From an uncultured Eubacteriales bacterium (GTDB lineage Bacteria; Actinomycetota; Coriobacteriia; Anaerosomatales; CAVRZR01), in NCBI GenBank assembly GCA_964354215.1, contig CAYGYT010000003.1:20272-84271 (forward strand): a DNA stretch of 64,000 nt, written 5' to 3'. This document shows positions 9,630 through 52,070 of this stretch, one piece after another; position 1 is the first letter of the stretch; each line of letters starts with the position of its first letter. Under the pieces are notes generated by a model. It did no database searches, had not been told where the DNA came from, and saw only the letters and a program-made list of their open reading frames with translations. The position numbers and the translations under genes are program-made.

Positions 9630-9658
9630 TCACGCGGCGCGCAACGTGTCGAACACCC

Positions 9659-9684: not shown

Positions 9685-9690
9685 GTTCGC

Positions 9691-9696
9691 TAGGAT
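9691..9696 (+). promoter_or_regulatory. -10 box TAGGAT placed 6 nt before the recJ-fusion ATG (probable leaderless transcript)
   Basis: TAGGAT at 9691-9696, ATG at 9703, no SD between them. Confidence 0.3.
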
Positions 9697-9702
9697 GAGA
9701 CC

Positions 9703-31758: not shown

Positions 31759-32283
31759 ATGTCGCTTCTCAGCCCGGATCTGTACTATCGCTCGGTGGCC
31801 GACATCGACTTGGACGAACTCCAGCGGCGCGGCATACGAGTGTTGCTGCTCGACCTCGACAACACGCTTGTCTTGAGGAACACCACGGAGGCCTCAGAGA
31901 GGGTGCGGAACTGGGTGGAGGCGGCCAAGCGGCGCGGCATGCAGGTGACGATCGTCTCCAACAACTGGCACGAGCGAGTACAGCAGGCCGCCGATGACCT
32001 TGACGTCGCGATCGTGGGCAAGGCGACAAAGCCGCTGCCATCGGGTTTCCGCCGGGCACTGGGGGGTACGGATGCAGCGCCTTCGGAGTGCGCCGTCGTC
32101 GGCGATCAGGTGTTCACGGACATTCTCGGCGGTAGCCTGTTCGGTTCCACTACGGTTCTCGTCACGCCGCTCGCGGGTGGTTCCGACCTGCCGCACACGC
32201 GCCTCCTGCGGACACTGGAGCGCCGCATCCTGCGCGGCAGGACGCCCCAGCGTGCACCACGCGGCGATTCATCAGGAAAGTGA
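31759..32283 (+). CDS. YqeG-family HAD-IIIA phosphatase
   Basis: The ATG at 31759 gives MSLLSPDLYY...VLLLDLDNTLV (HAD motif I). A late GDQVFTDILGG motif is present. The position before aroE matches Bacillus yqeG. Confidence 0.8.
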   Translation: MSLLSPDLYYRSVADIDLDELQRRGIRVLLLDLDNTLVLRNTTEASERVRNWVEAAKRRGMQVTIVSNNWHERVQQAADDLDVAIVGKATKPLPSGFRRALGGTDAAPSECAVVGDQVFTDILGGSLFGSTTVLVTPLAGGSDLPHTRLLRTLERRILRGRTPQRAPRGDSSGK

Positions 32284-32289
32284 GGGCGG

Positions 32290-33168
32290 ATGCGTCGTAT
32301 CGATGGCATGACGCGGCTGGCTGGCATCATCGGACATCCGCTCGACCACACCCTGTCGCCGGCGATGCACAACGCGGCATACGAGGCCATGGGTCTAGAT
32401 TGGGTCTATGTCCCCTTGCACGTGCGAGAGGAGCGCGACCTTGCGCGCGTCCTCTCCGCAGTCCGCTCGCTCTTGTTCGTGGGCGTGAACGTCACCATGC
32501 CCTACAAGCAGGCGATGGTGGGACTGTGCGATGAGGTGGCGGAGATCGCGTTGCTCGCTGGGGCGGTCAATACCATCCAGTGTGTGGACGGGCGGCTCAT
32601 CGGCTACAACACCGACGGACGCGGGCTGCTCGAGGCGCTTTCGAGCGAGGCGGACTTCGACCCGGCCGGTCGTGACATAGCCCTTGTGGGTGCGGGTGGC
32701 GCCGCCGGAGGCGCGCTCGTCGCGCTCGCTCTTGCACGGGCGAAGCGCATCACGGTAGTGAACCGCGATGAAGTCCGGGCGCACTCCCTTGTGGAGCGCG
32801 TCCAGCGACGACTGGGTGGGGTGGAACTCGTGGCCCTCCCGTTCGGCGCCGAGGCTGAGAGCGCCGTGGGTGCCGCCGACCTCGTCGTCAACGGCACGCC
32901 GTTGGGGATGGCAGAGGACGATCCCAGTCCGGTACCCGCCTCGTGGCTTCGGTCAGGGCAGGTTGTTGCCGATATGGTTTATCGGGCGCAACCTACCTCC
33001 CTCGTGTGTGCCGCGCGCGACGCGGGAGCGGTCGCCCTCGACGGGTTCGGGATGCTCGTGTGCCAGGGTGCGACGGCCATCGACATCTGGCATGGCGATG
33101 CGGACGTGCGAGCCCCTCGGGATGTGATGCGTGCGGCGGCGGCTGAGGTGCTGGGCCGCGAAGCGTAG
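32290..33168 (+). CDS. aroE: shikimate dehydrogenase
   Basis: GIIGHPLDHTLSPAMHN, NVTMPYK, GYNTDG, and GAGGAAGG NADP-binding motifs. Confidence 0.92.
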   Translation: MRRIDGMTRLAGIIGHPLDHTLSPAMHNAAYEAMGLDWVYVPLHVREERDLARVLSAVRSLLFVGVNVTMPYKQAMVGLCDEVAEIALLAGAVNTIQCVDGRLIGYNTDGRGLLEALSSEADFDPAGRDIALVGAGGAAGGALVALALARAKRITVVNRDEVRAHSLVERVQRRLGGVELVALPFGAEAESAVGAADLVVNGTPLGMAEDDPSPVPASWLRSGQVVADMVYRAQPTSLVCAARDAGAVALDGFGMLVCQGATAIDIWHGDADVRAPRDVMRAAAAEVLGREA

Positions 33169-33191
33169 GTCCGAGGAAGAGCGCAGAGCAT

Positions 33192-34862
33192 ATGACCGCG
33201 AGTAGCAATCGGCTTGGAAGGATCCTCGTCCAGTCCGGCGTCATCACGGATTCACAATTCGAAGAGGCGCTCGCGCAGGTGGACGGGCGCTCGATAGCGT
33301 CCGTGATCTCGGATCTTGGCTACGCCGACGAGGCTCTCATCGCTCGCACCGTTGCGGACTCGATGGGACTTACATACGTGGATCTCGCGGCCACGGAAGT
33401 CGATGCCCACGCAGCGACGCTCATCTCTTCCGACCTCGCCCGCCGCTACATCGTGCTGCCGATCCAGCTCCAGGACGACGAGCTCGTCGTAGCCATGTCG
33501 GATCCCGCGAACATATTCGCCATCGATGACCTTCGCATCGTGACGGGCTACACCGTTCGCCCCGTTGTCGCCGCAGAGAGCGATCTGGTGAGCGCCATCG
33601 AGAAGCTTTCGACAGCTCAGACGAGCGTCGAGGACATGATGGGCGATCTGGAAGAGGCGCTCAGCGTAGGCGCCGACGACGAGGACGAGGACAGCGGAGA
33701 CGCGGAAGCCCCCGTGGCCAAGCTCATGAATCTCGTCATCACGGAGGGAATCCGGCAAGGAGCGGGAGACATCTATCTCGAGCCCCACGAGCACGAGATG
33801 CGTGTCCGCTTCCGGATCGACGGCGTGTGCCAGGAGGTCTTCCGCAGCCCCAAGAAGATGCACCGGCAGGTCATCAGCCGGCTCAAGATCAACGCCGGCA
33901 TGGACATCGCCGAGAAGCGCGTGCCCCAGGACGGACGCTTCAGCGTGGTGCTCGACGGCAAGGCGGTGGACTTCAGAGTCGCCGTACTCCCGCTCGTCCA
34001 CGGCGAGCTTGCAGTTCTGCGCCTGCTGCGCCGGGACTCGATCATGATGTCGCTCAAGGACCTCGGCTTTCTCCAGCAGCCGATGGACCGTCTACGCGAG
34101 GCGCTCTCGCTTCCCTACGGTGCCATCCTCGTCACCGGCCCGACGGGGTCGGGCAAGTCCACGACGCTGTACGCGGCGATCAACGAGACCAACGACCCCA
34201 AGACGAACCTCATCACCGTCGAAGATCCGGTCGAGTACCGCCTCGCCGGCCTCTCGCAAGTCCAGGTGCACGAGAAGGCTGGACTGAGCTTCGCGGCGGC
34301 ACTTCGCTCGATCCTGAGGCAGGACCCCGACACCGTGATGATCGGTGAGATTCGCGACAAGGAAACCGGGACGATCGCGATCGAAGCCGCCCTCACGGGC
34401 CACCTCGTCCTCTCAACGCTGCACACGAACGACGCTCCCTCGGCACTCACGAGGCTGACTGAGATGGGTATCGAGCCGTTCCTGTCGGCCTCGGCGGTCA
34501 CCTGCGTGCTGGCACAGCGGCTTGCACGGCGACTCTGTCCGGAGTGTAAGCAGGAGTACGTGCCGGAAGAAGAAGCTCTCGTGCGCGTCGAGTTTCCGTT
34601 TGAGCCGGGCAATCCGCCCAAGCTCTACCGCGCGGTTGGGTGCAAGAAATGCAACGGGATCGGCTACCGGGGGAGGATGGGCGTCCACGAGGTGCTCACC
34701 ATGTCAGAGCCCCTCGAACGCCTGGCCGTCTCGAATGCCTCGGCCGACGACATCAAGCGTCAGGCGGTTGCCGAGGGGATGCGGACCCTGCGCGAGGACG
34801 GCTTCGAGAAGGTCAAGGCGGGCGTCACGTCAATCGAGGAGATCATGCGCGTCGTTGTGTGA
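33192..34862 (+). CDS. GspE/PilB-family type II/IV secretion ATPase (first of two paralogues)
   Basis: N-terminal T2SSE_N-type domain (RLGRILVQSGVITDSQFEEAL), Walker A GPTGSGKST, Walker B DPDTVMIGEIRD, and the tetracysteine CPECK...CKKCNGIGYRGR. Confidence 0.9.
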   Translation: MTASSNRLGRILVQSGVITDSQFEEALAQVDGRSIASVISDLGYADEALIARTVADSMGLTYVDLAATEVDAHAATLISSDLARRYIVLPIQLQDDELVVAMSDPANIFAIDDLRIVTGYTVRPVVAAESDLVSAIEKLSTAQTSVEDMMGDLEEALSVGADDEDEDSGDAEAPVAKLMNLVITEGIRQGAGDIYLEPHEHEMRVRFRIDGVCQEVFRSPKKMHRQVISRLKINAGMDIAEKRVPQDGRFSVVLDGKAVDFRVAVLPLVHGELAVLRLLRRDSIMMSLKDLGFLQQPMDRLREALSLPYGAILVTGPTGSGKSTTLYAAINETNDPKTNLITVEDPVEYRLAGLSQVQVHEKAGLSFAAALRSILRQDPDTVMIGEIRDKETGTIAIEAALTGHLVLSTLHTNDAPSALTRLTEMGIEPFLSASAVTCVLAQRLARRLCPECKQEYVPEEEALVRVEFPFEPGNPPKLYRAVGCKKCNGIGYRGRMGVHEVLTMSEPLERLAVSNASADDIKRQAVAEGMRTLREDGFEKVKAGVTSIEEIMRVVV

Positions 34863-34944
34863 TGCGTGGCCCCTTGACCCTCGTTGTGCCTGACTGACCA
34901 TCGTGAGAGTATGAATCCACTGTGGCGTTCGGCTGGGGAGAGCC

Positions 34945-35763
34945 GTGCGACCCTTTGTTGCCGCACCATATGACGTGGAGGTGCTCGGATCAGTGACGGA
35001 GAACGGACTCGGTGACTTCTTCATCGCGGACACCGGTGATGAGCTTCCCGGATTCGCGCCGACCCCTGTTGTGATCCCGCCGTCTCCGAGCTCGCCGCCT
35101 GTGGTGCCAGCGGGGCCGTGGGACGCGCAGGAGGAGCGATCCGATGCGGGGCGAGCGGACACGGTGCAGCCCGGAGCCCCCGCTTCTCCCGCGGCTGCAC
35201 CGGAACCGGTGTTCGCTCCGTACGTCGAGCCGGCGATCGCGTCGCCCGCTATCCCGGCCCCCGTCTTTGCACCTGCGCCTGCGTCACCCCTGGTGCCCGT
35301 AGCATCCCCGGAGGCGCTCACGGAGGATTCGACGGCAGCCCCGGCCCCAGCGTCTGGAGCTGCTGCCTCCCCGGCGGCTCCTTCCGCGGCGAGCCCGACG
35401 CGTGAACAGCAGCTCGCTGCCGCGCTCAATACCTTCATGCGCATGTCGGACGACGTAGAGGCCGCTGCACTGGTGAGTCTCGACGGCTTCACGATGGCCT
35501 CGGCCCTGCCCGAGGGCATGCACGAGGACCGCGTTGGTGCGATGTCGGCGGCCATCCTCGGGTTGGGGGAACGTGCGGCCGCCGAGCTCGGTCGGGGCAA
35601 GCTTTCGCAGGTCTTCATTGAGGGCGATGCCGGCTACGTGCTGCTGATGGCAGCGGGCGATAGGGCCGTGCTCACGGCGCTTGCGAACCTCGATGCGAAG
35701 CTCGGTCTGCTCCTGTACGACATGCGAGACGTCGCCGACGCCATCGCCGACATTCTCGGCTAG
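34945..35763 (+). CDS. Roadblock/LC7 (MglB/CvnB-like) domain protein with a ~165-aa Pro/Ala-rich N-terminal extension
   Basis: The C-terminal ~105 aa (VEAAALVSLDGFTMASALPEG...AMSAAILGLGERAAAELGRGKLSQVFIEGDAGYVLLMAAGDRAVLTAL) fit the Robl/LC7 pattern. Confidence 0.75.
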   Translation: MRPFVAAPYDVEVLGSVTENGLGDFFIADTGDELPGFAPTPVVIPPSPSSPPVVPAGPWDAQEERSDAGRADTVQPGAPASPAAAPEPVFAPYVEPAIASPAIPAPVFAPAPASPLVPVASPEALTEDSTAAPAPASGAAASPAAPSAASPTREQQLAAALNTFMRMSDDVEAAALVSLDGFTMASALPEGMHEDRVGAMSAAILGLGERAAAELGRGKLSQVFIEGDAGYVLLMAAGDRAVLTALANLDAKLGLLLYDMRDVADAIADILG

Positions 35764-35795
35764 CGAATCGGATCCGAAAGCGAATGACGTAGCCG

Positions 35796-37790
35796 ATGGC
35801 TCTGAGAGGCAACCTCAAGGACTTCACCCTCCCGGACGTCTTCCAGCTCATCAGCTTGAGCAAGAAGACAGGCATCCTTCGTATGCGCCGTCCCGACGAC
35901 GCCGAGGGCAGCGTCTGGTTCCGCGAGGGAGAGGTGTTCTTCGCCCAGTCGAACTGGCATAGGGAGCGTCTCGGTGAGCGGCTCGTCGCTGCGCAGAAGA
36001 TCACGCCGAGCGCTCTTGGGCGTGTTCTGCAGGTTCGTGCTGCGGAACCCGAAGGGCGTCGCCTCGGCACCATCCTCGTCGACGAGGGCTACATAACCGA
36101 GACCGTCTTGGAGGCGTTCGTCCAGGAGCAGATTCAGGACACGATCTTCGATTTGATGCGCTGGGACGATGGCGAGTTCGACTTCGAGTTGCTTCCCCAG
36201 ATCGTCGAGGAGGATATCGGCCTCACGGTCTCGATAGAGAACATCGTGATGGAGGGCAGCAGGCGGCTCGAAGAGTGGGCGCGGATCAAGAAGAAGGTCC
36301 CCTCGATGGACATCGTGTTCAAGATGGCCACCGCTCCCGGCGAGGGCACGTTCGAGATCTCCCTCAAACCGGTCGAATGGAACCTTCTGCTGCTGGTCGA
36401 CGGCACTCGCAGCGTCGCCGAGCTTGCACGTACCGCTCGCCGCACTGATTTCGACGTGGCGCGGGTCGTCTACGGACTGTTCTCCGCGGGGCTGCTCGAA
36501 GTCGTCAGCGATGAGGAAGTAGCGCGGCTCCGTGCCGCGCGCGCCGCGCGAGAGACCGAGCTGGCCGAGGAGGCTTCTTCAATCGCCGCAACGACACCCG
36601 TTGCGGCAGCGGTCATTGAGGAGACGACCGAGCCGCCGGCCGGTACCGCCGTCGAGACGACTCCAGCTCCCTCGGTGCCAGCGGTGCAGGCGGCTCCTGC
36701 CCAGCTCGAGGTCATGGCGGCCGCCGAATCGGCGCCGCGTGCGGCTCCGACCGACCTGCCGCGGTTCCTCGCCGGGGACGTGCCGGCGGCGGGCCCCGGC
36801 ATCACCGAGCTCGAGGAGCGGTACGGGCGACTGCGCGAGGCCGCCGCATCGGTCTCCTCGGCGCCGGAGCAGGTGCCTCCGCGACAAGCTGCGCCATCAC
36901 AACCGCTCGCACCACCGGAGGAGTCGCCGACGCCAGAGCCAGTGGTTCTCGGGCCCGAGGCGTCGATGGAACCCGAGCTCCCCGTGCCGCCGATGCCCGA
37001 AGAAGCACAACCGCCGTTCGTCGAATCCCGCGAGGATTCCGAGCTGCAGCCATTCGTTGAGCCGTCAGCGCATCCATCCCGCCTGACCTCCGACGTGCCG
37101 CCTGCTCAGACGGAGGTCCTTTCATTCGCGGAGGAGACGTTCGTCGGGACCGTCGAGGTTGAGGCACCTTTGGAATCGACCGAGCCGGTGGTCTACCTCG
37201 GTGGGGATGAGACCATCGAGGAGGCCGAGGTTCCTGCGTCAGATGGGGTTTCGCCACAGCTGGAGTCGGAGCTCCTCGCGCTCGGTCTTGCCGCAGCGCC
37301 GCCACAGGCGCCCGAACCGGACGTTGGCGTCAACGAGCCACACGGCGTCATTCCGAGTGAACCGGAGCTCGAGGAGTCTGTGTCGGCCGTCAGCGGGCCC
37401 GAGTCCCCGGAAGAGCGGGCTGCCGCCGATGAGGCGGCCACATCCGACCTCGACGAGCTGATCGGTGCTTTGGGCGAGAGCGCCGGCGACGCGGCCGTTT
37501 CGGATCGAGTGCTCTCCACCGACGCGTATCTCCTGGATGTCTCAATCGGCGAAGCCGCCCCGGAACCGCCTGCCCTCGAGACCACGCCGGCGGCCGACGC
37601 CCGCGTGGACGCTGGGCTGAGTGGAGCGATAAACGACGAGATCAACGCGCTCACGGGGGTCGAGCGCGGCGGCCGGCCGGTCACGAGGATCACCGACCTT
37701 CCCGAACCAGGATCGGCCGTACCCCAACGCGACAGGAGTGTGGACCGAGAGACGCTGCTCAGGATCATCGATGGTATCAAGAGACTCTAG
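35796..37790 (+). CDS. DUF4388 domain protein with a ~400-aa acidic/Pro-rich low-complexity region
   Basis: The N-terminus LRGNLKDFTLPDVFQLISLSKKTGILRM...GSVWFREGEVFFA matches the DUF4388 signature as I remember it. The rest is E/P/A/S-rich. Confidence 0.7.
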   Translation: MALRGNLKDFTLPDVFQLISLSKKTGILRMRRPDDAEGSVWFREGEVFFAQSNWHRERLGERLVAAQKITPSALGRVLQVRAAEPEGRRLGTILVDEGYITETVLEAFVQEQIQDTIFDLMRWDDGEFDFELLPQIVEEDIGLTVSIENIVMEGSRRLEEWARIKKKVPSMDIVFKMATAPGEGTFEISLKPVEWNLLLLVDGTRSVAELARTARRTDFDVARVVYGLFSAGLLEVVSDEEVARLRAARAARETELAEEASSIAATTPVAAAVIEETTEPPAGTAVETTPAPSVPAVQAAPAQLEVMAAAESAPRAAPTDLPRFLAGDVPAAGPGITELEERYGRLREAAASVSSAPEQVPPRQAAPSQPLAPPEESPTPEPVVLGPEASMEPELPVPPMPEEAQPPFVESREDSELQPFVEPSAHPSRLTSDVPPAQTEVLSFAEETFVGTVEVEAPLESTEPVVYLGGDETIEEAEVPASDGVSPQLESELLALGLAAAPPQAPEPDVGVNEPHGVIPSEPELEESVSAVSGPESPEERAAADEAATSDLDELIGALGESAGDAAVSDRVLSTDAYLLDVSIGEAAPEPPALETTPAADARVDAGLSGAINDEINALTGVERGGRPVTRITDLPEPGSAVPQRDRSVDRETLLRIIDGIKRL

Positions 37791-37802
37791 GAGCGGGATG
37801 GC

Positions 37803-38330
37803 ATGCAGTCCGTGAAAGTCGTCATCACCGGTCCCTTCAACGCCGGCAAGACCACGTTCATCAAGGCGGTGAGCGAGATTACCGTGCTCTCGACGGAGCG
37901 CCAGGTGAGCGATATCTCAGGCGAAGGGGGCGGCGAGACGACGGTCGCAATGGATTTCGGTCGCATCACGGTGTCTGACGACGTCGTGTTGTACCTGTTC
38001 GGCACACCCGGCCAAGAGCGCTTCTCGTTCATGTGGGACACGCTCTCCGAGGGGATGCTCGGCTTCGTCGTGCTGGCCGACGGGACCAACCGGGAGTCCC
38101 TTTCCGACGCGCGCGCGATGATCGACTACTTCACGAAGCTCTCCGATGTCTCGTTCGTGGTCGCCGCGAATCGCATGGATGCAGGTGATGCAGAGGGGCT
38201 CTCTCATGTCCGTTCCGATCTCGGATTGGACGAGAGCGTCCCGCTGCTCTCGGTCGACGCGCGAGACCGGGAGTCAGTGAAGTCGGTCCTGCTGGGTCTG
38301 CTCTACCGCATTCTGGAGAGCGTCGGCTAG
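37803..38330 (+). CDS. small Ras-like GTPase of the CvnD/MglA-like (COG2229-type ATP/GTP-binding protein) family
   Basis: P-loop GPFNAGKT, TTVAMDFGRI, G3-like LYLFGTPGQERF, and G4-like AANRMD. AGGAGCGGG SD is present. Confidence 0.8.
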   Translation: MQSVKVVITGPFNAGKTTFIKAVSEITVLSTERQVSDISGEGGGETTVAMDFGRITVSDDVVLYLFGTPGQERFSFMWDTLSEGMLGFVVLADGTNRESLSDARAMIDYFTKLSDVSFVVAANRMDAGDAEGLSHVRSDLGLDESVPLLSVDARDRESVKSVLLGLLYRILESVG

Positions 38331-38331
38331 G

Positions 38332-38745
38332 TTGATGCGGCTTCTACCGGGTATCCTCATTGGCTCGGTGGTGCTGATCGTGCTCTCGGTCGTCGCCGTT
38401 CGTGTGATGATGCGAGCGCAGAAGCGCCGCGATCTTGGTTCACGCGCCCGACGGCGCGGTGCGGCACCACCCGCGATGCCCTCAACGCCGGAACCGCGCC
38501 TCAACGCCGGGAACGTCGTGGCCGATACCATCGCCCCACGAGGGGCTCCGAGCCTCGCGATCGACACGGCACGCGTTCCCGCGCGCCGTTTGGTTGCGCC
38601 GGTTGAGCTCTGGTTCGGCACCACCTGTGTGGGGGTCGTGCGGGGGAGCGATACGCATGAGCGCTTCAGCCGCTACGCGAACGGACTGCTCGCGGAGCTT
38701 GCCGCGGGCTCGGACTCGCGTGAGGGCGGCTCTCCCAGGGTGTAG
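38332..38745 (+). CDS. hypothetical single-pass membrane protein
   Basis: N-terminal TM (LPGILIGSVVLIVLSVVAV), a basic/Pro-rich linker, and a short C-terminal segment. It starts 1 nt after the GTPase stop. No family recognised. Confidence 0.4.
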   Translation: MMRLLPGILIGSVVLIVLSVVAVRVMMRAQKRRDLGSRARRRGAAPPAMPSTPEPRLNAGNVVADTIAPRGAPSLAIDTARVPARRLVAPVELWFGTTCVGVVRGSDTHERFSRYANGLLAELAAGSDSREGGSPRV

Positions 38746-38909
38746 CGCGCGATCGTGCGGTTGCTGACCGCAGTACCCTTCGGCGACGGCCTGCCGTTTC
38801 GCTCCTCGGTTGCGCCGAGCCCGACCGTAATGCTCCCTGCTCCGAACGCCGATGAAAGACGTGTCGCAGTCGCGTCCTCGCGCGGCGGGTTCGCCTGCGG
38901 CACGGGCGC

Positions 38910-40598
38910 GTGCAGAAGGGGCAGCGGGTGGCGGAAACGGGAAAGAGGCTCGGGCAGCTCCTCGTCCGGGCCGGCGTCATAAGCGAAGCGCAGTTCAACG
39001 ACGCCCTCGAGGCGCACCGGGGTACCGGAGCGCCGCTCGGCCGCGTGCTCGTCGATCTCGGTTACGCGTCGCAGGCTTCGGTGCTTGCCGTGATGGCACG
39101 CCAGATCGGCATCGACTACGTCGACTTCTCGGAGCGCAAGCCGGAGCCGAACGCCATCGCCGTCGTTCCGCGTGAACTCGCTGTGCGCTACGTGCTCATG
39201 CCCGTGGAGATCGCCGAGGACATACTCGTGGTCGCGATGGCCGATCCGCAGAACGTCCTCGCCCTTGACGACCTGCGGATCATCACCGGGTTCGACGTGC
39301 GGGCCTGCATCTCGACGAAGGACGATATCCTCGGCGCGATCGAGGAGTACTACAAGGTCGCCGAGCAGTCCGAGGCCGACGAGTTCATCGGCAGTGCCGA
39401 GATCGACGACATCGACCTCGCGGAGCTTACGGACGTGACCTCCGAAGCGCCCACGGTCAAGCTCGTCAACTTCATCATCCACAAGGCGGTCACCGAACGC
39501 GCCTCGGACATACACATCGAACCCCAGGAGAAGGACCTACGCGTCCGCTTCCGCATCGATGGCGTGCTCCACGAGGTGGTGCGCAGTCCCAAGTCGACAC
39601 AGGCGGCGATCATCAGTCGGTTCAAGATCATGGCGGAGATGGACATCGCCGAATCGCGAAAGCCTCAGGACGGGCACTGCGCGGTGACCGTGGCGGGACA
39701 CAAGCTCGACTTCCGCGTCTCGACGCTTCCGACCGTCTACGGCGAGCGTGTTGTGCTCCGCATCCTGCGCAAGGACTCCATTCTGCTGCAGCTCAAGGAC
39801 CTAGGCTTCCTGCCGAACGCCCTTGGCCGTTTCGAATCGTCGTTCACCAAGCCGTACGGCGCCATTCTCGTCACCGGTCCGACGGGTTCGGGCAAGTCGA
39901 CGTCGCTCTATGCAGCGATAAACGTACTCAACTCGCCGACGAAGCACATCCTCACCGCCGAGGACCCGGTCGAATACCGTCTCGAGGGCGTCAACCAGTG
40001 CCAGACGAACAACCGCGTTGGCCTGACCTTCGCGCGCGCGCTCCGGTCGTTCCTGCGCTGCTCGCCCGACATCATCCTCGTCGGCGAGATTCGCGACCAT
40101 GAGACCGCCAAGATCGCGATCGAGTCGGCGCTCACCGGGCATCTCGTGCTCACAACGCTCCACACGAACGATTCGTCCGGAGCCGTGACCCGACTCGTCG
40201 AGATGGGCGTCGAGCCGTTCCTCGTGTCCTCGGCCGTGGATTGCGTGCTTGCGCAGCGCCTCGCCCGGCGCCTGTGCCCCGACTGCAAGACCGAGTACCG
40301 CCCTGCGGAAGAAGTGCTCATCGAGGCGGGCTACTCGCCCGATAACCTACCTGAGGTCGTCTACCGGCCAGTTGGCTGCAAGAAATGCGGCGGGACGGGA
40401 TACCGGGGGCGCCTCGGCGTTCACGAGGTACTGCTCATGTCCGAAGAGATTCGCAGGTTGTGCGTGGCCGAGGCCACGTCGGAGCAGATCAAGCAAGTAG
40501 CGATCGAAGAGGGAATGCTGACACTCCGTCAGGACGGGTTGGAGAAGGTGCGGGACGGCTCAACGTCAATCGAGGAGATCTGCCGGGTCATCGTCTAG
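38910..40598 (+). CDS. pilB: type IV pilus assembly ATPase PilB (GspE family)
   Basis: T2SSE_N/MshEN-like N-terminus (KRLGQLLVRAGVISEAQFNDALEAH...PLGRVLVDLGY), Walker A GPTGSGKST, and CPDCK...CKKCGGTGYRGR. An alternative GTG start at 38928 has a better SD. Confidence 0.9.
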   Translation: MQKGQRVAETGKRLGQLLVRAGVISEAQFNDALEAHRGTGAPLGRVLVDLGYASQASVLAVMARQIGIDYVDFSERKPEPNAIAVVPRELAVRYVLMPVEIAEDILVVAMADPQNVLALDDLRIITGFDVRACISTKDDILGAIEEYYKVAEQSEADEFIGSAEIDDIDLAELTDVTSEAPTVKLVNFIIHKAVTERASDIHIEPQEKDLRVRFRIDGVLHEVVRSPKSTQAAIISRFKIMAEMDIAESRKPQDGHCAVTVAGHKLDFRVSTLPTVYGERVVLRILRKDSILLQLKDLGFLPNALGRFESSFTKPYGAILVTGPTGSGKSTSLYAAINVLNSPTKHILTAEDPVEYRLEGVNQCQTNNRVGLTFARALRSFLRCSPDIILVGEIRDHETAKIAIESALTGHLVLTTLHTNDSSGAVTRLVEMGVEPFLVSSAVDCVLAQRLARRLCPDCKTEYRPAEEVLIEAGYSPDNLPEVVYRPVGCKKCGGTGYRGRLGVHEVLLMSEEIRRLCVAEATSEQIKQVAIEEGMLTLRQDGLEKVRDGSTSIEEICRVIV

Positions 40599-40640
40599 CG
40601 CGGCGCGCGACTGGGCGAATGAAACAAGGAGTGTAGTGAG

Positions 40641-41852
40641 ATGGCGGTTTTCAACTACGCGGTTCGCGACAAAGCGGGCAAGGTCGTCAAGGGCCAGCTC
40701 GAGGGCGACAGCAAGGAGGTCGTCAGGGCGAAGCTCATGCAGATGGGCTACATCATCCTCGACCTCGAGCCGCAGAGCGCGATGGCCGCGCTCGGCAAGA
40801 TCAGTCTCGGCTCGCGCGTGAAGTCGAAAGACATCACGATCTTCGCGCGTCAGTTCGCGACGATGATCAACGCGGGCCTGTCGCTCACCAAGTGCCTCTC
40901 CATCTTGGGTTCGCAGACCGAGAGCGCACCGTTGCGAGACGTCATCGGGCAGATCGCGCGCGACGTGGAAGCGGGCCAATCGCTCTCTGACTCCATGTCG
41001 AAGCATCCCCGCATATTCCCGCCGATCTTCGTGAACATGGTGCGAGCCGGCGAGACGGGCGGTGTGCTCGACGAGGTCCTGCTTCGTGTCGCCGACCATT
41101 TCGAGCGGGACGCTGCACTCAAGGGACGCATCAAGTCCGCCATGACGTACCCCATCGCGATGGGCTCGCTCGTCGTGATCATCCTCATTGCAATGATGGT
41201 CTTCGTGGTGCCGACGTTCGAGAAGATGTTCAACGACATGGGCGGCGAGCTTCCCCTCATGACTCAGATGCTCGTCGGCGTCTCGAACACCGTGGCGAGC
41301 TTCTGGGGCATCGTGATCGCCGGGGCGATCGTCGGAATGGTCATGGGGTTCCGTTGGTGGAAGCGCACGCCCTCGGGCAAGCTCATCTGGGACGGGATCA
41401 CCTTGCGCATGCCGGTCTTCGGGTCGCTCGTGCGAAAGCTCGCGCTCGCGAAGTTCACCCGTACGTTCGGCACGCTCGTGTCGGCAGGCGTCCCGATCCT
41501 CTCCGCACTCGACATCGTGGCGGACACGTCCGGCAACGAAGTCGTCGCCCAGGCGGTCAAGAAGACTCGCTCCGCGATCAAAGAAGGCGAGACGATCGCC
41601 AAGCCACTCGGCGAGTCGCCGGTCTTTCCGTCGATGCTCGTTCAGATGATCGCGGTGGGCGAGGAGACGGGTGCTCTCGACGCCATGCTGACCAAGATCG
41701 CCGACTTCTACGACGAGGAAGTAGGGGCGGCTGTCGAGGGACTCACGTCGCTCATCGAGCCGCTCATGATGGCCTCGCTCGGCGCGGTCGTCGGCGTCAT
41801 GGTCATCGCTCTCTACATGCCGATGTTCACCGTCATCTCGCTCGTGAAGTAG
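40641..41852 (+). CDS. pilC: type IV pilus platform protein PilC (T2SS F family)
   Basis: 403 aa with two GspF-type repeats and TM segments. AAGGAG SD is present. Confidence 0.93.
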   Translation: MAVFNYAVRDKAGKVVKGQLEGDSKEVVRAKLMQMGYIILDLEPQSAMAALGKISLGSRVKSKDITIFARQFATMINAGLSLTKCLSILGSQTESAPLRDVIGQIARDVEAGQSLSDSMSKHPRIFPPIFVNMVRAGETGGVLDEVLLRVADHFERDAALKGRIKSAMTYPIAMGSLVVIILIAMMVFVVPTFEKMFNDMGGELPLMTQMLVGVSNTVASFWGIVIAGAIVGMVMGFRWWKRTPSGKLIWDGITLRMPVFGSLVRKLALAKFTRTFGTLVSAGVPILSALDIVADTSGNEVVAQAVKKTRSAIKEGETIAKPLGESPVFPSMLVQMIAVGEETGALDAMLTKIADFYDEEVGAAVEGLTSLIEPLMMASLGAVVGVMVIALYMPMFTVISLVK

Positions 41853-41879
41853 TCGCGAGCTCGCCATTCCGCAACGCCT

Positions 41880-41912
41880 GCGCCCCCGCAGCCATGTCGC
41901 TCGCGGGGGCGC
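41880..41912 (+). terminator. hairpin after pilC (GCGCCCCCGC ... GCGGGGGCGC), possible attenuator or terminator
   Basis: Perfect 10-bp inverted repeat at 41880-41889 and 41903-41912 with a 13-nt loop. No T-tract follows. Confidence 0.4.
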
Positions 41913-42113
41913 TTGCCGTCTCGGCTGGGATGCCTTCGCCGAGCGTAGCTGCAGGTCCGCTCGTCGCTCTTGTGTGATGACCGGCACCAAATCGGACGAT
42001 TTAGAAGAGAAATGCGCGGCGAACGCTAAAGTGCCGGCCTGCGGCTCCGATACCACTGGTGTCAGTAAGGGCGGAGAAGAACCGCCCGCGAGTCCCCCAA
42101 GGGGGAGAAGGAG

Positions 42114-42515
42114 GTGCTAGCCGTGAGGCTGTACCGCAGGGACGAGGGTTTCACCCTCATCGAGCTCATGGTCGTCGTTCTTATTATCGGTATCCTTGTT
42201 GCCATCGCCATCCCGGTCTTCAACACCGCGAAGGCCAACGCGCAGAAGAAGGCGTGCTTCGCCAACCAGCGCACGATCGAGGGTTCGGCCAACACGTACG
42301 AGGCCGAGAAGGGTGGCCCCCCGCCCACGCTGGCGACCCTGGTCACGACGAACTACCTCAAGACCATGCCGGACTGCCCGTCCAATGGTCCGCTCGCCGC
42401 TGGCGGCGCCGACTACTCGTGTAACAACACCACCACGGTTGACGGCGCCGCCGCTGGCGGTACCGGCTGCACGTTCGGTACCCCGGCCCACGGCTACTAC
42501 CAGGTCGATCCATAG
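42114..42515 (+). CDS. pilA: prepilin-type N-terminal cleavage/methylation domain pilin (ComGC/PulG-like)
   Basis: Leader ...RRDEG|FTLIELMVVVLIIGILVAIAIP. GAAGGAGG SD sits at 42106-42113. The GTG at 42123 is the more likely start; the longest ORF starts at 42114. Confidence 0.9.
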   Translation: MLAVRLYRRDEGFTLIELMVVVLIIGILVAIAIPVFNTAKANAQKKACFANQRTIEGSANTYEAEKGGPPPTLATLVTTNYLKTMPDCPSNGPLAAGGADYSCNNTTTVDGAAAGGTGCTFGTPAHGYYQVDP

Positions 42516-42554
42516 GTCGATCCGAACTAGTACGACTCTCACTGAGCTCGCAAG

Positions 42555-42580
42555 GAAGGCCCGCCCACCGGCGGGCCTTC
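42555..42580 (+). terminator. intrinsic terminator after the pilin gene
   Basis: GAAGGCCCGCC-CACC-GGCGGGCCTTC, a perfect 11-bp stem, followed by TCCTTC. Confidence 0.7.
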
Positions 42581-42656
42581 TCCTTCGGGGGGTGGGCGAT
42601 CACGGCCGTGCGGCGGTCCCAATGTGCCCTGCACCAGCGGGCGCCCTGCCGCGCTT

Positions 42657-42665
42657 TGGTATCAT
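42657..42665 (+). promoter_or_regulatory. extended -10 promoter TGgTATCAT upstream of pilD
   Basis: Read directly, about 69 nt before the pilD ATG. The identical 9-mer recurs upstream of pilM. Confidence 0.45.
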
Positions 42666-42734
42666 CGCGTCGCCCAGCGACCATTCGCGTAGCTCGGCCA
42701 TCACACGGCGTTCCCGAGGGGGCTCTGGCCTTCG

Positions 42735-43559
42735 ATGCAGGTGTTCTCGCTCGTGATACTCGGCGTTTTCGGTCTGGCGTTCGGCAGTTTCGCGAACGTC
42801 GTGATCTGGCGCTTTCCGCGCGGGGAGTCGCTCTCACACCCTGCGTCGCACTGTCCGTTGTGCGAGCACCCGATCCGCTGGTACGACAACATCCCCATCG
42901 CGTCGTGGATCGCGCTCAGGGCGCGGTGTCGCGACTGTGGGGCTCCCATCGCGATTCGCTACCCGCTCGTGGAGCTCGCCTCCGGCGCGCTCTGGGTGCT
43001 CGCGGGTCTGCTCTACGGTACTTCGGCTCGCACGGTGAGCGCGATCGTGCTCTTCTACCTGCTGCTCATCCTGTCGCTCATCGATCTCGACACCATGCGG
43101 CTGCCCAATCCGATCGTCGGGTTGCTCGCAGCTACGGGATTCGTCGGCCTGCTGCTGGCTCAATTCACCGGCGTTGATGCCGCACCCATCACCTGGACGG
43201 GTAGTCTGCCGCCCGCACGGCCGCTCGTGCTCGGAGTGACGGGCGCGCTCGTGGGAGCCGGCGTGAGTCTGGCCATTGCGAGCATCTACGCCGGGATCAG
43301 GAAGAGCTCAGGCTTCGGGATGGGGGACGTGAAGCTCCTCGGGGCGCTGGGATTGTTCTTCGGGCCCTACGTGCTCATGGTGCTCTTCTTCGGAAGCCTT
43401 GTGGGAGCGGTCGTGGGGCTGGCATCCGTTCGCGAGCGCGGGCAACTGCGCACGCGCAAGTTGCCATTCGGCCCGATGCTCGCGGTGGGCGCGCTTGTGA
43501 CGGCCATCGCAGGGCCGGCGCTCTGGACGTGGTACACGACGCTCGTAGGGCTCCTCTAG
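42735..43559 (+). CDS. pilD: prepilin peptidase (A24 family, PilD)
   Basis: N-terminal Cys motif CPLCEH...CRDCG, aspartate motifs LIDLD and GMGDVKLLGALG, and about 7 TM. Confidence 0.92.
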   Translation: MQVFSLVILGVFGLAFGSFANVVIWRFPRGESLSHPASHCPLCEHPIRWYDNIPIASWIALRARCRDCGAPIAIRYPLVELASGALWVLAGLLYGTSARTVSAIVLFYLLLILSLIDLDTMRLPNPIVGLLAATGFVGLLLAQFTGVDAAPITWTGSLPPARPLVLGVTGALVGAGVSLAIASIYAGIRKSSGFGMGDVKLLGALGLFFGPYVLMVLFFGSLVGAVVGLASVRERGQLRTRKLPFGPMLAVGALVTAIAGPALWTWYTTLVGLL

Positions 43560-43741
43560 GCAGCGAGTGCTCGCGGTCACGCACGGGACGCCGTTCGTCG
43601 GACGGTGAAGCTCTGCCGCACGCATGCATCTCAAGAGCCTTTGCACCTCTGCCTATGCCGCATGTGCACGCGGATAGTCGTCGCATGCGCCGGTGCGGCA
43701 TTCGGCGGAAATTGGAGCCGACTCTAAAGACTTCGGCCCAA

Positions 43742-43769
43742 TTGCCGAGACTAGTAGGTGTGGTATCAT
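43742..43769 (+). promoter_or_regulatory. promoter for pilMNO: TTGCCG - 16 nt - (TGg)TATCAT
   Basis: -35 at 43742-43747, TG at 43761-43762, -10 at 43764-43769. Confidence 0.5.
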
Positions 43770-43820
43770 CCGCCACGGGAGCAACACCTAGCAACGAACG
43801 AAGCCTAATCGCAGCAGTAC

Positions 43821-44966
43821 TTGAAGGGGGACCTCTTGGCTCCTGTCTCCTTCTCGTCGGGGGCGCCCATCGTCGGTCTTGATATAGGGACCGACCATGT
43901 ACGGGCCGCACAAGTCAAACCGACGGGCTCGGGCTTCTCACTGACCGCTTACGGCCGTGTCAACATGCCGCTCGGCGCAGTCGTCGAGGGCGAGATCGTC
44001 GACACGGACGCGGTTGCTGCTGCCATTCGCGAACTCTGGAAGCGCTCCGGCGTGAAGGGCCGCGAGGTTGCTGTCGGCGTTTCGAACCAGAAGGTCGTCG
44101 TTCGCCTCATCGACCTGCCATTCATGGAGCGTGCCGAGCTCGAAGGCGCCATCCAGTACCAGGCGCAGGACTACATCCCGATCCCGGTCGAAGACGCGAT
44201 CCTGGACTTCCACATCCTCGGCGACTACATGACTCCCGCCGACGAGCACATGATGGAGGTCCTTCTGGTCGCCGCGCAGCGGGATATGGTCGGTGCCGCC
44301 GTGGCCGCCGTCGAGTCGGCCGGTCTCAAGCTCATGCAGATCGACGTGACCGCCTTCGCGCTCGTCAGAGGGCTCTTCGGCCCGATTGCCCAGGTGCTCC
44401 CCGATGAGGTGGCCGAACCCGGAGAGGCTGTCGGCGTCATCCACATCTCGTCGGGCATCACGAACATCGCCGTCGTGGAACGCGATGTCCCGCGCTTCAC
44501 ACGCGTCTCCTCGCTCGCGGGAAACCAGTTCACGCAGGCCATCGCGAACGTGCTGAACGTGACGTTCGACGAAGCTGAGGAGCTGAAGATCCGAATCGGA
44601 CTCCCCGGCCTCGATGCGGTTCCTGCCACCATCGCCGCGGGCGTCGACCCACAAACGGTCCAGATGGCGCAGGAGGCACTCGAGCGCGAGGTGAACAAGT
44701 TCATCGCCGAAGTGCGTCGTTCGCTTGACTACTACCTCACGCAGGCGACGCAGGTCCGCACCATCAAGCGGATCTACATGACTGGCAGCGGGGCGCTGCT
44801 CACAAACCTCGTGAGCTACCTCGAGCGCGGACTGCAGGCGCAGGTGCTCCTCGCCGACCCGCTCTCACGCGTGCAGGCCACGACTCCGGCGATCGAGCAG
44901 GCAGTAGCTGCGGACCGGCTTGGCTGCACCGCCGCCATCGGGCTCGCCATGGGCGGTGCGACGTAG
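43821..44966 (+). CDS. pilM: type IV pilus assembly protein PilM (actin-like ATPase fold)
   Basis: IVGLDIGTDHVRAAQV phosphate-1 motif. About 380 aa. TTG start at 43821 or at in-frame 43836. Confidence 0.9.
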   Translation: MKGDLLAPVSFSSGAPIVGLDIGTDHVRAAQVKPTGSGFSLTAYGRVNMPLGAVVEGEIVDTDAVAAAIRELWKRSGVKGREVAVGVSNQKVVVRLIDLPFMERAELEGAIQYQAQDYIPIPVEDAILDFHILGDYMTPADEHMMEVLLVAAQRDMVGAAVAAVESAGLKLMQIDVTAFALVRGLFGPIAQVLPDEVAEPGEAVGVIHISSGITNIAVVERDVPRFTRVSSLAGNQFTQAIANVLNVTFDEAEELKIRIGLPGLDAVPATIAAGVDPQTVQMAQEALEREVNKFIAEVRRSLDYYLTQATQVRTIKRIYMTGSGALLTNLVSYLERGLQAQVLLADPLSRVQATTPAIEQAVAADRLGCTAAIGLAMGGAT

Positions 44967-45605
44967 ATGGTACGCATCAACCTTCTGCCACGGGACATTC
45001 TCGAGAAGCGTCGCTACGAGCGCTACTTCGTGTGGGTCTATGTCGCGGCAGCGATCCTCGCAGTGCTGCTGCTCGGTATCTGGCTATTCCTTGGGCTGCA
45101 AGTGCAGCAGAAGAACAAGGATTTGCAGAGCCGCCAGGAACTCGCAAACAAGCTTCGCGCGGAGGCGGACGCGTTCGCGGTCTTCGAGCAGAAGCAGGCC
45201 GACCTCACCGCGCGACAGGAAATCGCCCAGCAGGCCCTTGCCGGTCGCATCAACTGGGCAAAGATAAACAACGAGATCTCGCTCGTGCTCCCGTCAGATG
45301 TCTGGGCCCAGAGTATGACCGCGAACCAGGACACGGGAATGCAGTTCACTCTGACCTCGCTCGACGCGGTGGACTCACCTGACGTTGGCCAGAAAGCGGT
45401 TGCGCGCACGATGGTTCGCCTGAACGATCTTGCCTCCTTGACGGACGTGTGGTTGATCGCGTCGTCAAAAACTGTGGTCGCGGAGGGCGAATCCAAGACC
45501 CCTATCATCCAGTTCCAGCTCACGTCTCAAGTCGTCAAGCCGGCCACGGCGAGTGCGACGGCAAGCCCGAGCGTGCCCGCCCCGCCTGCCTCGAACGGTC
45601 CGTAG
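44967..45605 (+). CDS. pilN: type IV pilus assembly protein PilN
   Basis: N-terminal INLLP motif, one TM, and a coiled coil. The ATG directly follows the pilM stop. Confidence 0.8.
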   Translation: MVRINLLPRDILEKRRYERYFVWVYVAAAILAVLLLGIWLFLGLQVQQKNKDLQSRQELANKLRAEADAFAVFEQKQADLTARQEIAQQALAGRINWAKINNEISLVLPSDVWAQSMTANQDTGMQFTLTSLDAVDSPDVGQKAVARTMVRLNDLASLTDVWLIASSKTVVAEGESKTPIIQFQLTSQVVKPATASATASPSVPAPPASNGP

Positions 45606-45619
45606 AGGTTGAGGACGCG

Positions 45620-46219
45620 ATGAAGCTGTCACCACGCAACCGACTCATCCTCACGATCGCCCTGGTCGTCGTTGTCGCGCTTGCCCTCGCCGGTTTCCTG
45701 ATCTACCCGCAGTTCGGCAAGCTTGCTGATCTGGACAAGCAGATCGAACAGGCGCAAAGCCAGATCGACCAGGCGAAAGTGCTGCTGGAACAGCGCCAGG
45801 CTGTGAAGGGCCGCGCGGCGCAGACCGATGCCGAGCTGCTCAGGCTCTCCAACGAACTCCCTGAAAGCCCCGAGCTCGCCTCGTTCATCATCGAACTGCA
45901 GGACACGGCGAACGAGGCCGGCGTCGAGTTCGTCACGCTCACGCCGGACACTCCAGCGCAGAACACCGGGTACTCGTCCATCAAGATGAAGATGGACATT
46001 CGAGGCGGATGGGCCGACACCATCGACTTCCTGCACCGCGTGGCCGAACTCACTCGGCAGGTGCGGGTCATAGGGTATGCGGCGGTGCCGTACACCGAGC
46101 AGAGCACGGGGAGCTCCGACACCGCACAGAAGGTGCTGGTGTCGGTAGACCTCGAAGTCTATACGCTAGCAGCAGCCCAGTCCGCGACAGGCGCAGCCGC
46201 GCCGGCGCCGGCTCAGTAG
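45620..46219 (+). CDS. pilO: type IV pilus assembly protein PilO
   Basis: The ATG at 45620 gives a TM, a coiled coil (QIEQAQSQIDQAKVLLEQ) and a ferredoxin-like C-terminus (IKMKMDIRGGWADTIDFLHRV). The upstream part of the 45449 ORF overlaps pilN. Confidence 0.8.
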   Translation: MKLSPRNRLILTIALVVVVALALAGFLIYPQFGKLADLDKQIEQAQSQIDQAKVLLEQRQAVKGRAAQTDAELLRLSNELPESPELASFIIELQDTANEAGVEFVTLTPDTPAQNTGYSSIKMKMDIRGGWADTIDFLHRVAELTRQVRVIGYAAVPYTEQSTGSSDTAQKVLVSVDLEVYTLAAAQSATGAAAPAPAQ

Positions 46220-46234
46220 GACGGTGACGAGTCA

Positions 46235-46885: not shown

Positions 46886-46905
46886 GACTTCTCGGCGCGT
46901 GACCC

Positions 46906-46940
46906 CCGAACCGGTGGTAGAATCTGCGCACCGGGTTCGG
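46906..46940 (+). promoter_or_regulatory. extended -10 promoter TGgTAGAAT for aroC, flanked by the inverted repeat CCGAACCGGTG / CACCGGGTTCGG (possible operator or RNA hairpin)
   Basis: TAGAAT at 46918-46923. Repeat arms at 46906-46916 and 46929-46940. Confidence 0.35.
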
Positions 46941-46957
46941 CAGGAAGGCCGCAGGTC

Positions 46958-51297: not shown

Positions 51298-51345
51298 GAC
51301 GCCTGGCCCAGGCCGATCGCAGGGTGACACGAGAGGACGCGCAGC

Positions 51346-51906: not shown

Positions 51907-52070
51907 CACCGTCCCGCGCATCGCGCGCGCGGACGACTGCCGCTCTCGGAACCACGTCCGCCGCCGTACTCGGCATCCTGCATCGCCCTGCGACCGTCGT
52001 CTATACTGTACGTTCCAGCAGTCGGCAGCCGGCACGTCCGGCGCTCAGACGCGCACGCAAGGGGTAGGCG

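Follow-up and report, generated by a model that had tools for sequence, protein, structure and literature searches.

The stretch of DNA analysed here, referred to as the window (64,000 nt; all coordinates count from its first letter), comes from an uncultured bacterium placed by GTDB in the Anaerosomatales (Actinomycetota; Coriobacteriia) and carries a type IV pilus (T4P) gene cluster headed by a small-GTPase module. Directly after aroE lie five co-directional, tightly spaced genes, just where the initial annotation of the locus had put them, all on the + strand and with a GC content at third codon positions of coding type (Table 1). They encode an extra PilB/GspE-type ATPase (PilB1), a Roadblock/LC7 protein, a protein with a PATAN domain (DUF4388/PatA_N), a Ras-like small GTPase and a small bitopic membrane protein, here called the tail protein. 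The genes for the canonical extension ATPase PilB2, the platform protein PilC and further pilus components follow. Profile searches with Pfam and NCBIfam agree with the domain assignments made earlier (Roadblock, DUF4388, GTPase and T2SSE). The feature is real and strongly conserved; its parts are of known kinds, and their arrangement is one of which we found no description in the literature searched. By analogy with homologues, we consider it reasonably likely that this T4P operon has its own small-GTPase switch module acting on the pilus motor.

Table 1. Genes and protein segments of the GTPase module and the pilus cluster in the window
Feature	Coordinates	Strand	Evidence or remark
aroE (shikimate dehydrogenase)	32290..33168	+	Pfam Shikimate_dh_N, Shikimate_DH, SDH_C; upstream anchor, conserved among the loci
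PilB1, extra PilB/GspE-type hexameric ATPase, 556 aa	33192..34862	+	T2SSE 3e-136, MshEN 1e-22
Roadblock/LC7 (MglB/CvnB-type) protein	34993..35763 (longest ORF from 34945)	+	Robl_LC7 9e-15
PATAN (DUF4388/PatA_N) adaptor, 664 aa	35796..37790	+	PF14332 7.5e-33
MshEN-type tandem c-di-GMP motif in PATAN alpha-clip, aa 56-112	35961..36131	+	NCBIfam NF053729
Winged-helix domain of PATAN protein, ~aa 185-240	36348..36515	+	Model secondary structure, Foldseek
C-terminal amphipathic helix of PATAN protein, RDrsVdretLLRIIdGIKRL-COOH	37728..37787	+	Conserved in homologues
Ras-like small GTPase, MglA family (groups 2-5 type), 175 aa	37803..38330	+	ATP_bind_1, Ras, Arf
Small bitopic membrane protein (tail protein)	38335..38745 (initial annotation: ORF from 38332)	+	N-terminal transmembrane helix, no family
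PilB2, canonical T4P extension ATPase	38910..40598	+	T2SSE 2.6e-139, NF053729 57.9 bits
PilC platform protein	40641..41852	+	T2SSF 4.6e-68, PilC NCBIfam models
Type IV pilin	42114..42515	+	N_methyl motif 2.8e-9
Prepilin peptidase PilD	42735..43559	+	A24_N_bact, Peptidase_A24
PilM, putative PilN, PilO	43821..46219	+	TIGR01175 pilM 229 bits (cut-off 133); PilO PF04350 5e-13

The GTPase gives Pfam matches to ATP_bind_1 (1e-16), Ras (4.5e-8) and Arf. All the motifs quoted in the initial annotation (GPFNAGKT, TTVAMDFG, GTPGQ and NRMD) are present, within a G1 of GPFNAGKT, a G2 of ETTVAMDF, a G3 of LFGTPGQE, a G4 of AANRMD and a G5 of VDARD; NRMD is a rare G4 variant, most close relatives having NKVx. 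The MglA family is defined as single-domain Ras-like GTPases of 150-240 aa with an MglB (Roadblock) homologue within four genes (PMC4316618), and the window protein, 175 aa long with the Roadblock gene two genes upstream, falls within it. Groups 2-5 are recognised by GTPGQ in G3 and by a G2 with Thr where the Arg finger would be (PMC4316618), and the TT and GTPGQ of the window GTPase assign it to them. It differs from group 1 (MglA/SofG) in having TT rather than RT in G2, with no intrinsic Arg finger, and GTPGQ instead of TVPGQ in G3. More than 8000 relatives are present in the databases, the closest (73-80% identity) from metagenome-assembled genomes (MAGs) labelled Coriobacteriia, Anaerosomatales or Actinomycetota. 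These relatives point to a Coriobacteriia-like actinobacterium of the OPB41/Anaerosomatales type as the source, in line with the probable monoderm actinobacterium of the initial annotation. When an Acidothermus-type homologue served as the query, the best 120 matches were all MAG or metagenome proteins. The AlphaFold model of the GTPase (pLDDT 80, low in the switch I region) has as its top PDB match the Thermus thermophilus MglA-GppNHp-MglB complex 3T1Q (E 1.5e-10), with Rab/Ras chains within a factor of 2-4.

The initial annotation had read the GTPase motifs as the signature of CvnD, the GTPase of actinobacterial conservons. Judged by sequence, CvnD is indeed the closest characterised relative: identity to the GTPases of canonical conservons, taken from verified CvnA-Roadblock-DUF742-GTPase operons on Streptomyces, Micromonospora, Nocardia and Kitasatospora plasmids, is 44-49%. 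The window protein is nevertheless not a conservon member, because it belongs to a separate, PATAN-linked clade with distinct G1 and G4 motifs. In a distance tree (neighbour-joining, NJ, without bootstrap support) the PATAN-linked GTPases are monophyletic (81/81) and stand apart from the CvnD clade (8/8). Their G1 reads GPF[NSA]AGKT against GGFG[VT]GKT in CvnD, and their G4 N[KR]xx or T[KR]xx against N[CSY]F, and the GPFNAGKT and NRMD of the window GTPase depart from the patterns that mark the CvnD clade (G1 GGFGxGKT, G4 NxF[DA]). These motifs and the tree place the window GTPase in a clade sister to CvnD that is marked by an upstream PATAN gene.

The Roadblock gene is present as first annotated, but with a later start: GTG 34993 is the most likely initiation codon (256 aa), being the point at which the N-terminal motif conserved among homologues begins, and a GGAGG precedes it by about 10 nt. 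In the protein from the longest open reading frame (ORF) the Robl_LC7 match spans aa 169-247. Sequence matches of this domain in the PDB (7F8M 3e-26, Rv3364c 5e-8, CvnB5 3LEQ 8e-7) bear out the earlier view of a CvnB/MglB-type protein, as they include the solved CvnB5 and Rv3364c/MfpD, and the protein has the 'LDG' (D-G pair) that MglB partners of GTPases in groups 2-5 typically carry (PMC4316618). Coriobacteriia-like Roadblock proteins consist of an acidic N-terminal motif, GD[YF]F[IL]SDVDDEL...APVVVP (GDFFI.D..DEL in the window), a proline/alanine-rich (P/A-rich) linker and the Roadblock domain last; those of Actinomycetes have the reverse layout, with the Roadblock domain first and the extension C-terminal. 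Experiments have shown that the Roadblock protein MfpD is a GTPase-activating protein (GAP) for the CvnD-type GTPase MfpB (PMC9769811). A GAP role for the window Roadblock protein is therefore a reasonable inference.

The PATAN domain (PF14332, 113.6 bits against a cut-off of 25) covers aa 4-162 of the middle protein, in which Pfam finds no response regulator receiver (Response_reg, REC) domain of the kind that characterises PatA-type regulators. The AlphaFold model of aa 1-262 (pLDDT 91) shows a beta-alpha-beta3 core, a four-helix insertion known as the alpha-clip (about aa 56-121), a fifth strand and long helix, then a winged helix (H192-200, H207-213, H218-230, E234-236) and another long helix; a disordered linker of ~380 aa and the C-terminal helix complete the protein. 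This last helix has a hydrophobic moment of 1.13 per residue, and its terminal I-x-G-[IV]-[KR]-x-L-COOH, which is conserved best, is kept in Coriobacteriia-like, Geothermocultor-like, Solincola-like, Actinomycetes and Chloroflexota homologues, in which the linkers range from ~50 to 900 aa and the total length from ~275 aa (Chloroflexota) to 1270 aa (Solincola-like). Long P/A-rich low-complexity linkers occur in the Roadblock, PATAN and tail proteins (35000-35420, 36590-37700 and 38440-38560); their length varies several-fold among species while the short terminal motifs are kept. A longin or roadblock fold for the PATAN domain is not claimed, the best Foldseek matches being weak ones to SEA/GATOR1 subunits and winged-helix proteins (E >= 0.04).

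The alpha-clip carries a candidate binding motif for cyclic di-GMP (c-di-GMP). It scores 42.3 bits with NF053729 (cut-off 38) and aligns to the N-domain of Vibrio cholerae MshE (5HTL; E 3e-4, z = 15) across both 24-residue motifs. The strict MshEN motif is a tandem of RLGxx(L/V/I)(L/V/I)xxG(L/V/I)(L/V/I)xxxxLxxxLxxQ (Wang et al. 2016, PMC5013675). The second half-site of the PATAN protein, RLGTILVDEGYITETVLEAFVQEQ, fits it, as it does in 19/21 Coriobacteriia-like homologues; the first keeps RLG, LV and both Leu residues and deviates at positions 10-11 (Q, K) and 24 (R). The strict and relaxed patterns are harsh, the first half-site of PilB2 failing by its last residue alone, and the scores of the hidden Markov model NF053729 were for this reason weighted above them. 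The winged helix matches winged-helix and MarR proteins in Foldseek (2yu3, prob 0.99). Its region (aa 161-265) matches DUF742 weakly (E 0.076; 13 bits, cut-off 27), a search with the full-length protein finds no DUF742 at E <= 0.01, and hhalign against seven DUF742 proteins gives a probability of 64% over 54 columns, covering the generic winged helix alone. The winged helix occupies the position of CvnC/DUF742, and homology to CvnC is suggestive.

The ORF at 38332-38745, which the initial annotation began 1 nt past the GTPase stop, is a real gene, because its transmembrane (TM) helix and C-terminal motif are conserved in relatives; its start is probably ATG 38335. The tail protein consists of an N-terminal TM helix, a variable linker and the C-terminal motif PVELWFG..VGV..G..T...F...A..LL..L, which reads PVE[LM]WFG..VGV..G..T...F...A..LL.DL among relatives. 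Homologues of 84-533 aa occupy the same position with the motif conserved, and Actinomycetes have a small ORF with a related C-terminal motif after the GTPase gene. Pfam and NCBIfam searches with the tail protein and its homologues returned no family. The tail protein is a fourth conserved component of the module.

PilB1 and PilB2 are 53% identical. PilB1 has the T2SSE core, an MshEN N-domain, an intact Walker A (GPTGSGKST), GEIRD box and His box (LSTLHTND) and two CxxC pairs, the features expected of a PilB ATPase, and PilB2 likewise keeps all catalytic and zinc-binding motifs; both score below the equivalog cut-off of TIGR02538 (623 and 635 bits, respectively, against 675.65). The two differ in the c-di-GMP motif, which is full in PilB2 (NF053729 57.9 bits, cut-off 38), whereas PilB1 scores 26 bits, with a first half-site that seems intact and a second that fits neither pattern. 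The same combination recurs in the Coriobacteriia-like PilB1 homologues inspected. A midpoint-rooted NJ tree gives PilB1 a clade of its own (20/20) and puts PilB2 together with the lone PilB of Actinomycetes and Solincola-like genomes (36/36). This indicates that PilB1 is an old lineage-specific paralogue outside the ancestral module; among the fetched loci it is confined to the Coriobacteriia-like and Geothermocultor-like lineages. The initial description of the module as paired with its own ATPase paralogue therefore does not hold for the module as a whole. No PilT-like ATPase is encoded in the 64-kb window, where the two PilB paralogues were the sole matches; several related loci have a PilT-like gene between PilB2 and PilC.

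The proposed connection with pili draws on gene neighbourhoods. We surveyed 80 loci from species-representative genomes, scanned with the window proteins; counts refer to loci with enough flank, which was available to at most 10 kb. An automated count finds the PATAN gene directly upstream of the GTPase gene in 69/69 testable loci, mostly at <=20 nt or with a slight overlap, and ORF reading shows the same in four Solincola-like loci, with gaps of 3-15 nt. A Roadblock gene lies within 5 kb upstream in 47 of 48 Actinomycetota loci, and aroE precedes the module in all 43 Coriobacteriia-like, Geothermocultor-like and Actinomycetes loci. Downstream of the module, PilB is encoded at a distance of at most 3 kb in all 19 Coriobacteriia-like loci, the one Geothermocultor-like locus, all four Solincola-like loci and 17 of 21 Actinomycetes loci, and the pilus-operon context proposed in the initial annotation is thus conserved across four actinobacterial lineages. 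The Coriobacteriia-like (27) and Geothermocultor-like (2) loci have the order aroE-PilB1-Roadblock-PATAN-GTPase-tail-PilB2-(PilT)-PilC-PilD-PilM, with PilB1 directly upstream of Roadblock in all 21 that have enough upstream flank, including two with fragmented matches. The Actinomycetes (31 loci, from Frankiales, Acidothermaceae, Mycobacteriales and Nanopelagicales MAGs) have aroE-Roadblock-PATAN-GTPase-small ORF-PilB-PilT-like-PilC, with no PilB1. Independent gene calls with precomputed Pfam annotation confirm these two orders, reading aroE-PilB1-Robl-(697 aa, no Pfam match on record)-GTPase-(415 aa)-PilB-PilC at one locus (L001) and aroE-Robl-PatA_N-GTPase-PilB-T2SSE-PilC at another (L091).

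The four Solincola-like loci have two to three Roadblock genes, PATAN and GTPase, then aroE-PilB-PilT-PilC-PilM; since they keep PilB despite the aroE placed between, the pilus linkage outlasts local rearrangement. In these MAGs (L043, L046, L054 and L071, at ~5200-10000) the Roadblock genes are in tandem, the PATAN proteins are giant (1081-1273 aa), and aroE stands between GTPase and PilB. Three other loci (L030 10583-12058, L034 10586-12070 and L078 10771-12654) encode a Wzy_C (O-antigen-ligase-like) membrane protein between GTPase and PilB; such a protein, found in some Actinomycetes loci, may be a pilin glycosylation enzyme. The Thermus brockianus plasmid pTB1 (L083, 5354-11848) has the order DUF4388-GTPase-protoglobin-hypothetical-Roadblock-protoglobin-EAL-HD-GYP, with a GGDEF/EAL gene nearby; there the trio is connected not to pili but to haem sensors and enzymes that turn over c-di-GMP. 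In Actinomycetota the linkage to pil genes extends across the phylum, so that the lack of conserved linkage, which the initial annotation had named as the outcome that would tell against it, is not what is seen; the trio itself is older and not always pilus-linked. The domain identities, the gene order, the conservation of linkage and the clade structure are established.

Around the module the gene order is alaS-ruvX-mltG-...-aroE, module, PilB, PilC, pilin, PilD, PilM, putative PilN, PilO, unknown gene, aroC-aroK-aroB-aroQ. The ORF at 44967-45605 has no family match and is called putative PilN by position alone. The pilus cluster lies inside the actinobacterial shikimate locus, since aroE flanks it on one side and aroC-aroK-aroB-aroQ on the other; this insertion of pilus cluster and GTPase module (32290-50212) is common to all Actinomycetota relatives examined. 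The gaps measure 23 nt at the aroE/PilB1 end and 32, 12 and 1-4 nt further along the module; the Roadblock gene and PilB2 are preceded by wider ones, of about 80-130 and 164 nt, respectively. The short gaps from aroE to the small ORF suggest one transcript. A promoter and terminator scan of 32000-47200 gave counts not above those of shuffled sequence and no convincing terminator, and is neutral on this point. An Rfam scan of the window returned no match, and we therefore place no c-di-GMP riboswitch in it. Pfam searches found no family for the 216-aa ORF between PilO and aroC (46235-46885, +) or for a 506-aa ORF at 50515-52035 (-). Elsewhere in the window, a 1212-aa ORF (9703-13341, +) has the unusual architecture of a complete RecJ (DHH, DHHA1, RecJ_OB) joined to HIRAN and DEAD/Helicase_C domains.

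The components of the module have been met before in other combinations. Makarova et al. (2006) and Wuichet and Sogaard-Andersen (2015, PMC4316618) noted PATAN genes near MglB/MglA homologues, and Han et al. (bioRxiv 10.1101/2021.06.11.447907) reported that PATAN domains of Synechocystis bind PilB1 as well as PilC's N-terminal domain, that PATAN is the output of PatA-type regulators and that PATAN alone reverses phototaxis. The same authors drew attention to the MglA/MglB neighbourhoods and to the alpha-clip that PATAN has in common with PilB N-termini, and raised the question of a conserved role of PATAN in T4P regulation. Calling this form of control undescribed, as had been done initially, is consequently too strong. 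Our search of open-access papers and bioRxiv found no paper on a trio embedded in a pil operon in Actinomycetota, on its tail protein or on the associated PilB paralogue. A 2026 survey of actinobacterial G protein systems (AGPS) was anchored on CvnA synteny and would therefore miss the window module.

Each of the known systems resembles the window locus in part. Like MglA/MglB of Myxococcus xanthus and T. thermophilus, the locus pairs an MglA-family GTPase with a Roadblock protein, and the GTPase model matches MglA-MglB about as well as Rab/Ras. In Myxococcus, MglA and SofG control T4P formation and the placement of PilB and PilT (PMC4316618). Unlike the MglA/MglB genes, those of the window lie inside a pil operon with obligatory coupling to PATAN, and no RomR, RomX or SgmX homologues were seen. 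With conservons/AGPS the locus shares the order Roadblock-middle protein-GTPase, the G2 TT, G3 GTPGQ and G5 DAR motifs, and an adjacent Roadblock protein with sequence matches to CvnB5 (3LEQ) and Rv3364c. The canonical conservons compared all carry a CvnA-type kinase upstream of the Roadblock gene; in contrast, no CvnA kinase occurs here or in the 80 loci, the upstream gene being PilB1 or aroE, a PATAN protein of 664 aa stands in the middle where conservons have a DUF742 protein of ~120 aa, and the genes are embedded in a pilus cluster. The initial observation that CvnA and CvnC are missing is supported at the level of Pfam families: the locus encodes no kinase, and DUF742 stays below threshold. 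Cyanobacterial PATAN regulators (PixG, PixE, LsiR, TaxP and PatA) likewise have an alpha-clip resembling the PilB N-terminus, but the window protein has no REC domain or chemosensory input, the adjacent GTPase presumably serving as input, and it adds the winged helix, the long disordered linker and the conserved C-terminal helix. The alpha-clip resembles the MshEN domain of MshE/PilB in aligning with both V. cholerae MshE motifs and passing NF053729, and differs in that the predicted motif lies within a PATAN domain and not at the N-terminus of an ATPase, and in its deviating first half-site.

These comparisons allow us to propose how the module might work. Its core, conserved across Actinomycetota, comprises, in order, the Roadblock protein, the PATAN adaptor, the MglA-family GTPase and the small tail protein (membrane-anchored here). 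The GTPase is proposed to cycle between GTP and GDP states because its G1-G5 motifs and catalytic Gln are intact, and, as MglB and MfpD suggest, a Roadblock dimer would serve as its GAP. The PATAN protein could be both partner and output of the GTPase, given that the two genes abut and are probably translationally coupled, that the winged helix sits in the place of CvnC and that the C-terminal helix is conserved. The winged helix and/or the C-terminal helix may take part in nucleotide exchange or effector binding; in the Mfp system MfpC, of the CvnC/DUF742 type, serves MfpB as guanine nucleotide exchange factor (GEF) (PMC11343762). The PATAN domain would contact the PilB N-domain and/or the cytoplasmic domain of PilC, as in cyanobacteria, and this contact would set the time or place at which the extension motor engages with the platform. 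As the alpha-clip keeps an MshEN-type motif, c-di-GMP bound to it may be a second input to the adaptor in the Coriobacteriia-like lineage. The NF053729 score, the MshE alignment and the Thermus plasmid trio beside EAL, HD-GYP and GGDEF/EAL genes were counted for this link. PilB1 is a possible dedicated motor target of the module, and the membrane-anchored tail protein might tether the complex at the pilus machine. The interactions, GAP and GEF roles, c-di-GMP binding and effect on piliation in this scheme are drawn by analogy with homologues.

Several observations weigh against a pilus-directed switch, or against parts of it. Four of the 21 Actinomycetes loci have no PilB within 3 kb: two (L055, L074) have none in 10 kb, and two (L072, L077) have PilB-like matches ~9.5 kb downstream. 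Seventeen Chloroflexota loci have PATAN-GTPase, sometimes with Roadblock, and no pilB, pilC or pilM in the available flank, and the Thermus plasmid locus has no pil genes in its available flank. Because of these Chloroflexota and Thermus loci we regard the module as not intrinsically pilus-specific. Co-transcription of the module is deduced from gene spacing as its sole basis, and the PATAN-linked clade is known from sequence alone. The first c-di-GMP half-site of the PATAN protein is off at two positions and fails the relaxed pattern at 10-11, and homologues from Actinomycetes and Chloroflexota have a degenerate motif. The case for homology between the winged helix and the GEF CvnC is weak, and Foldseek found nothing in the PDB that matches the PATAN model (aa 1-262) significantly as a whole.

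The occurrence of the same trio without pil genes in Chloroflexota and on the Thermus plasmid, together with two Frankiales loci that keep the trio beside aroE with no pil genes within 10 kb, could mean that it is a general polarity or cell-cycle switch with non-pilus targets, and that its adjacency to pil genes was inherited at the aroE-aroC site from the actinobacterial ancestor. Orphan PatA-type proteins can indeed act outside pili, but PilB1 and PilC are the sole PATAN partners defined by experiment (10.1101/2021.06.11.447907). The pilB-pilC adjacency has moreover been kept in four deep actinobacterial lineages despite rearrangements, Wzy_C insertion and PilB1 gain, and the gaps, mostly of 1-32 nt with 164 nt before PilB2, suggest a single transcript, so we judge a general switch unlikely. 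A degenerate conservon that has lost its kinase and, in the manner of Cvn and Mfp systems, passes signals on to gene expression or translation is very improbable. The GTPase is 44-49% identical to CvnD of CvnA-B-C-D operons, the order of Roadblock, middle protein and GTPase is the same, and the winged helix of the middle protein is weakly similar to DUF742; yet DUF742 stays below the Pfam threshold, neither this locus nor the 80 loci have a CvnA-type kinase in or near them, the PATAN-linked GTPases form a clade apart from CvnD with other G1 and G4 motifs, and the neighbours are structural pilus genes, not regulators.

A separate question is whether PilB1 belongs functionally to the module at all. 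Two PilB paralogues in Gram-positive pilus loci are known in Clostridium, and PilB1 could be a second motor for another filament function (DNA uptake, secretion or substitution for PilT) that is independent of the GTPase module. The ancestral module of Actinomycetes, Solincola-like genomes and Chloroflexota lacks PilB1, which is a separate old paralogue clade, and no PilT is encoded in the 64-kb window. On the other hand, PilB1 is fixed directly upstream of Roadblock (21/21 loci, two fragmented), has a single PilC, PilM and pilin set to work with, and has a degenerate c-di-GMP site matched by a motif in the adjacent PATAN protein. We hold this independence to be a possibility worth keeping in mind, albeit the less expected one. 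A bolder proposal, which we regard as rather improbable, is that the PATAN protein acts as an adaptor, gated by c-di-GMP and controlled by the GTPase, that picks which of the two PilB proteins docks on the single PilC, and that the CvnB-CvnC-CvnD core descended from such a regulator by PATAN loss and kinase gain. It draws on the good first half-site predicted in PilB1, the strict second half-site in PATAN and the full site in PilB2, from which a composite c-di-GMP site between PATAN and PilB1 might form. If such motor choice occurred, the machine could switch modes, for example between extension and a PilT-independent reverse or alternative function.

How PATAN works, and why it is so often found beside MglA/MglB-like genes, is a question standing since 2006. 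The joining of the trio in one operon with its presumed target PilB-PilC across a phylum offers a clean genetic and biochemical system for the link between PATAN, GTPase and pilus. The sequence of the PATAN alpha-clip suggests a candidate new class of c-di-GMP receptor, and the conservon GTPases gain a pilus-linked sister clade, which bears on the origin of actinobacterial G protein systems. For the organisms themselves, the module points to spatial or temporal control of T4P in monoderm Actinomycetota, whose pili have barely been studied.

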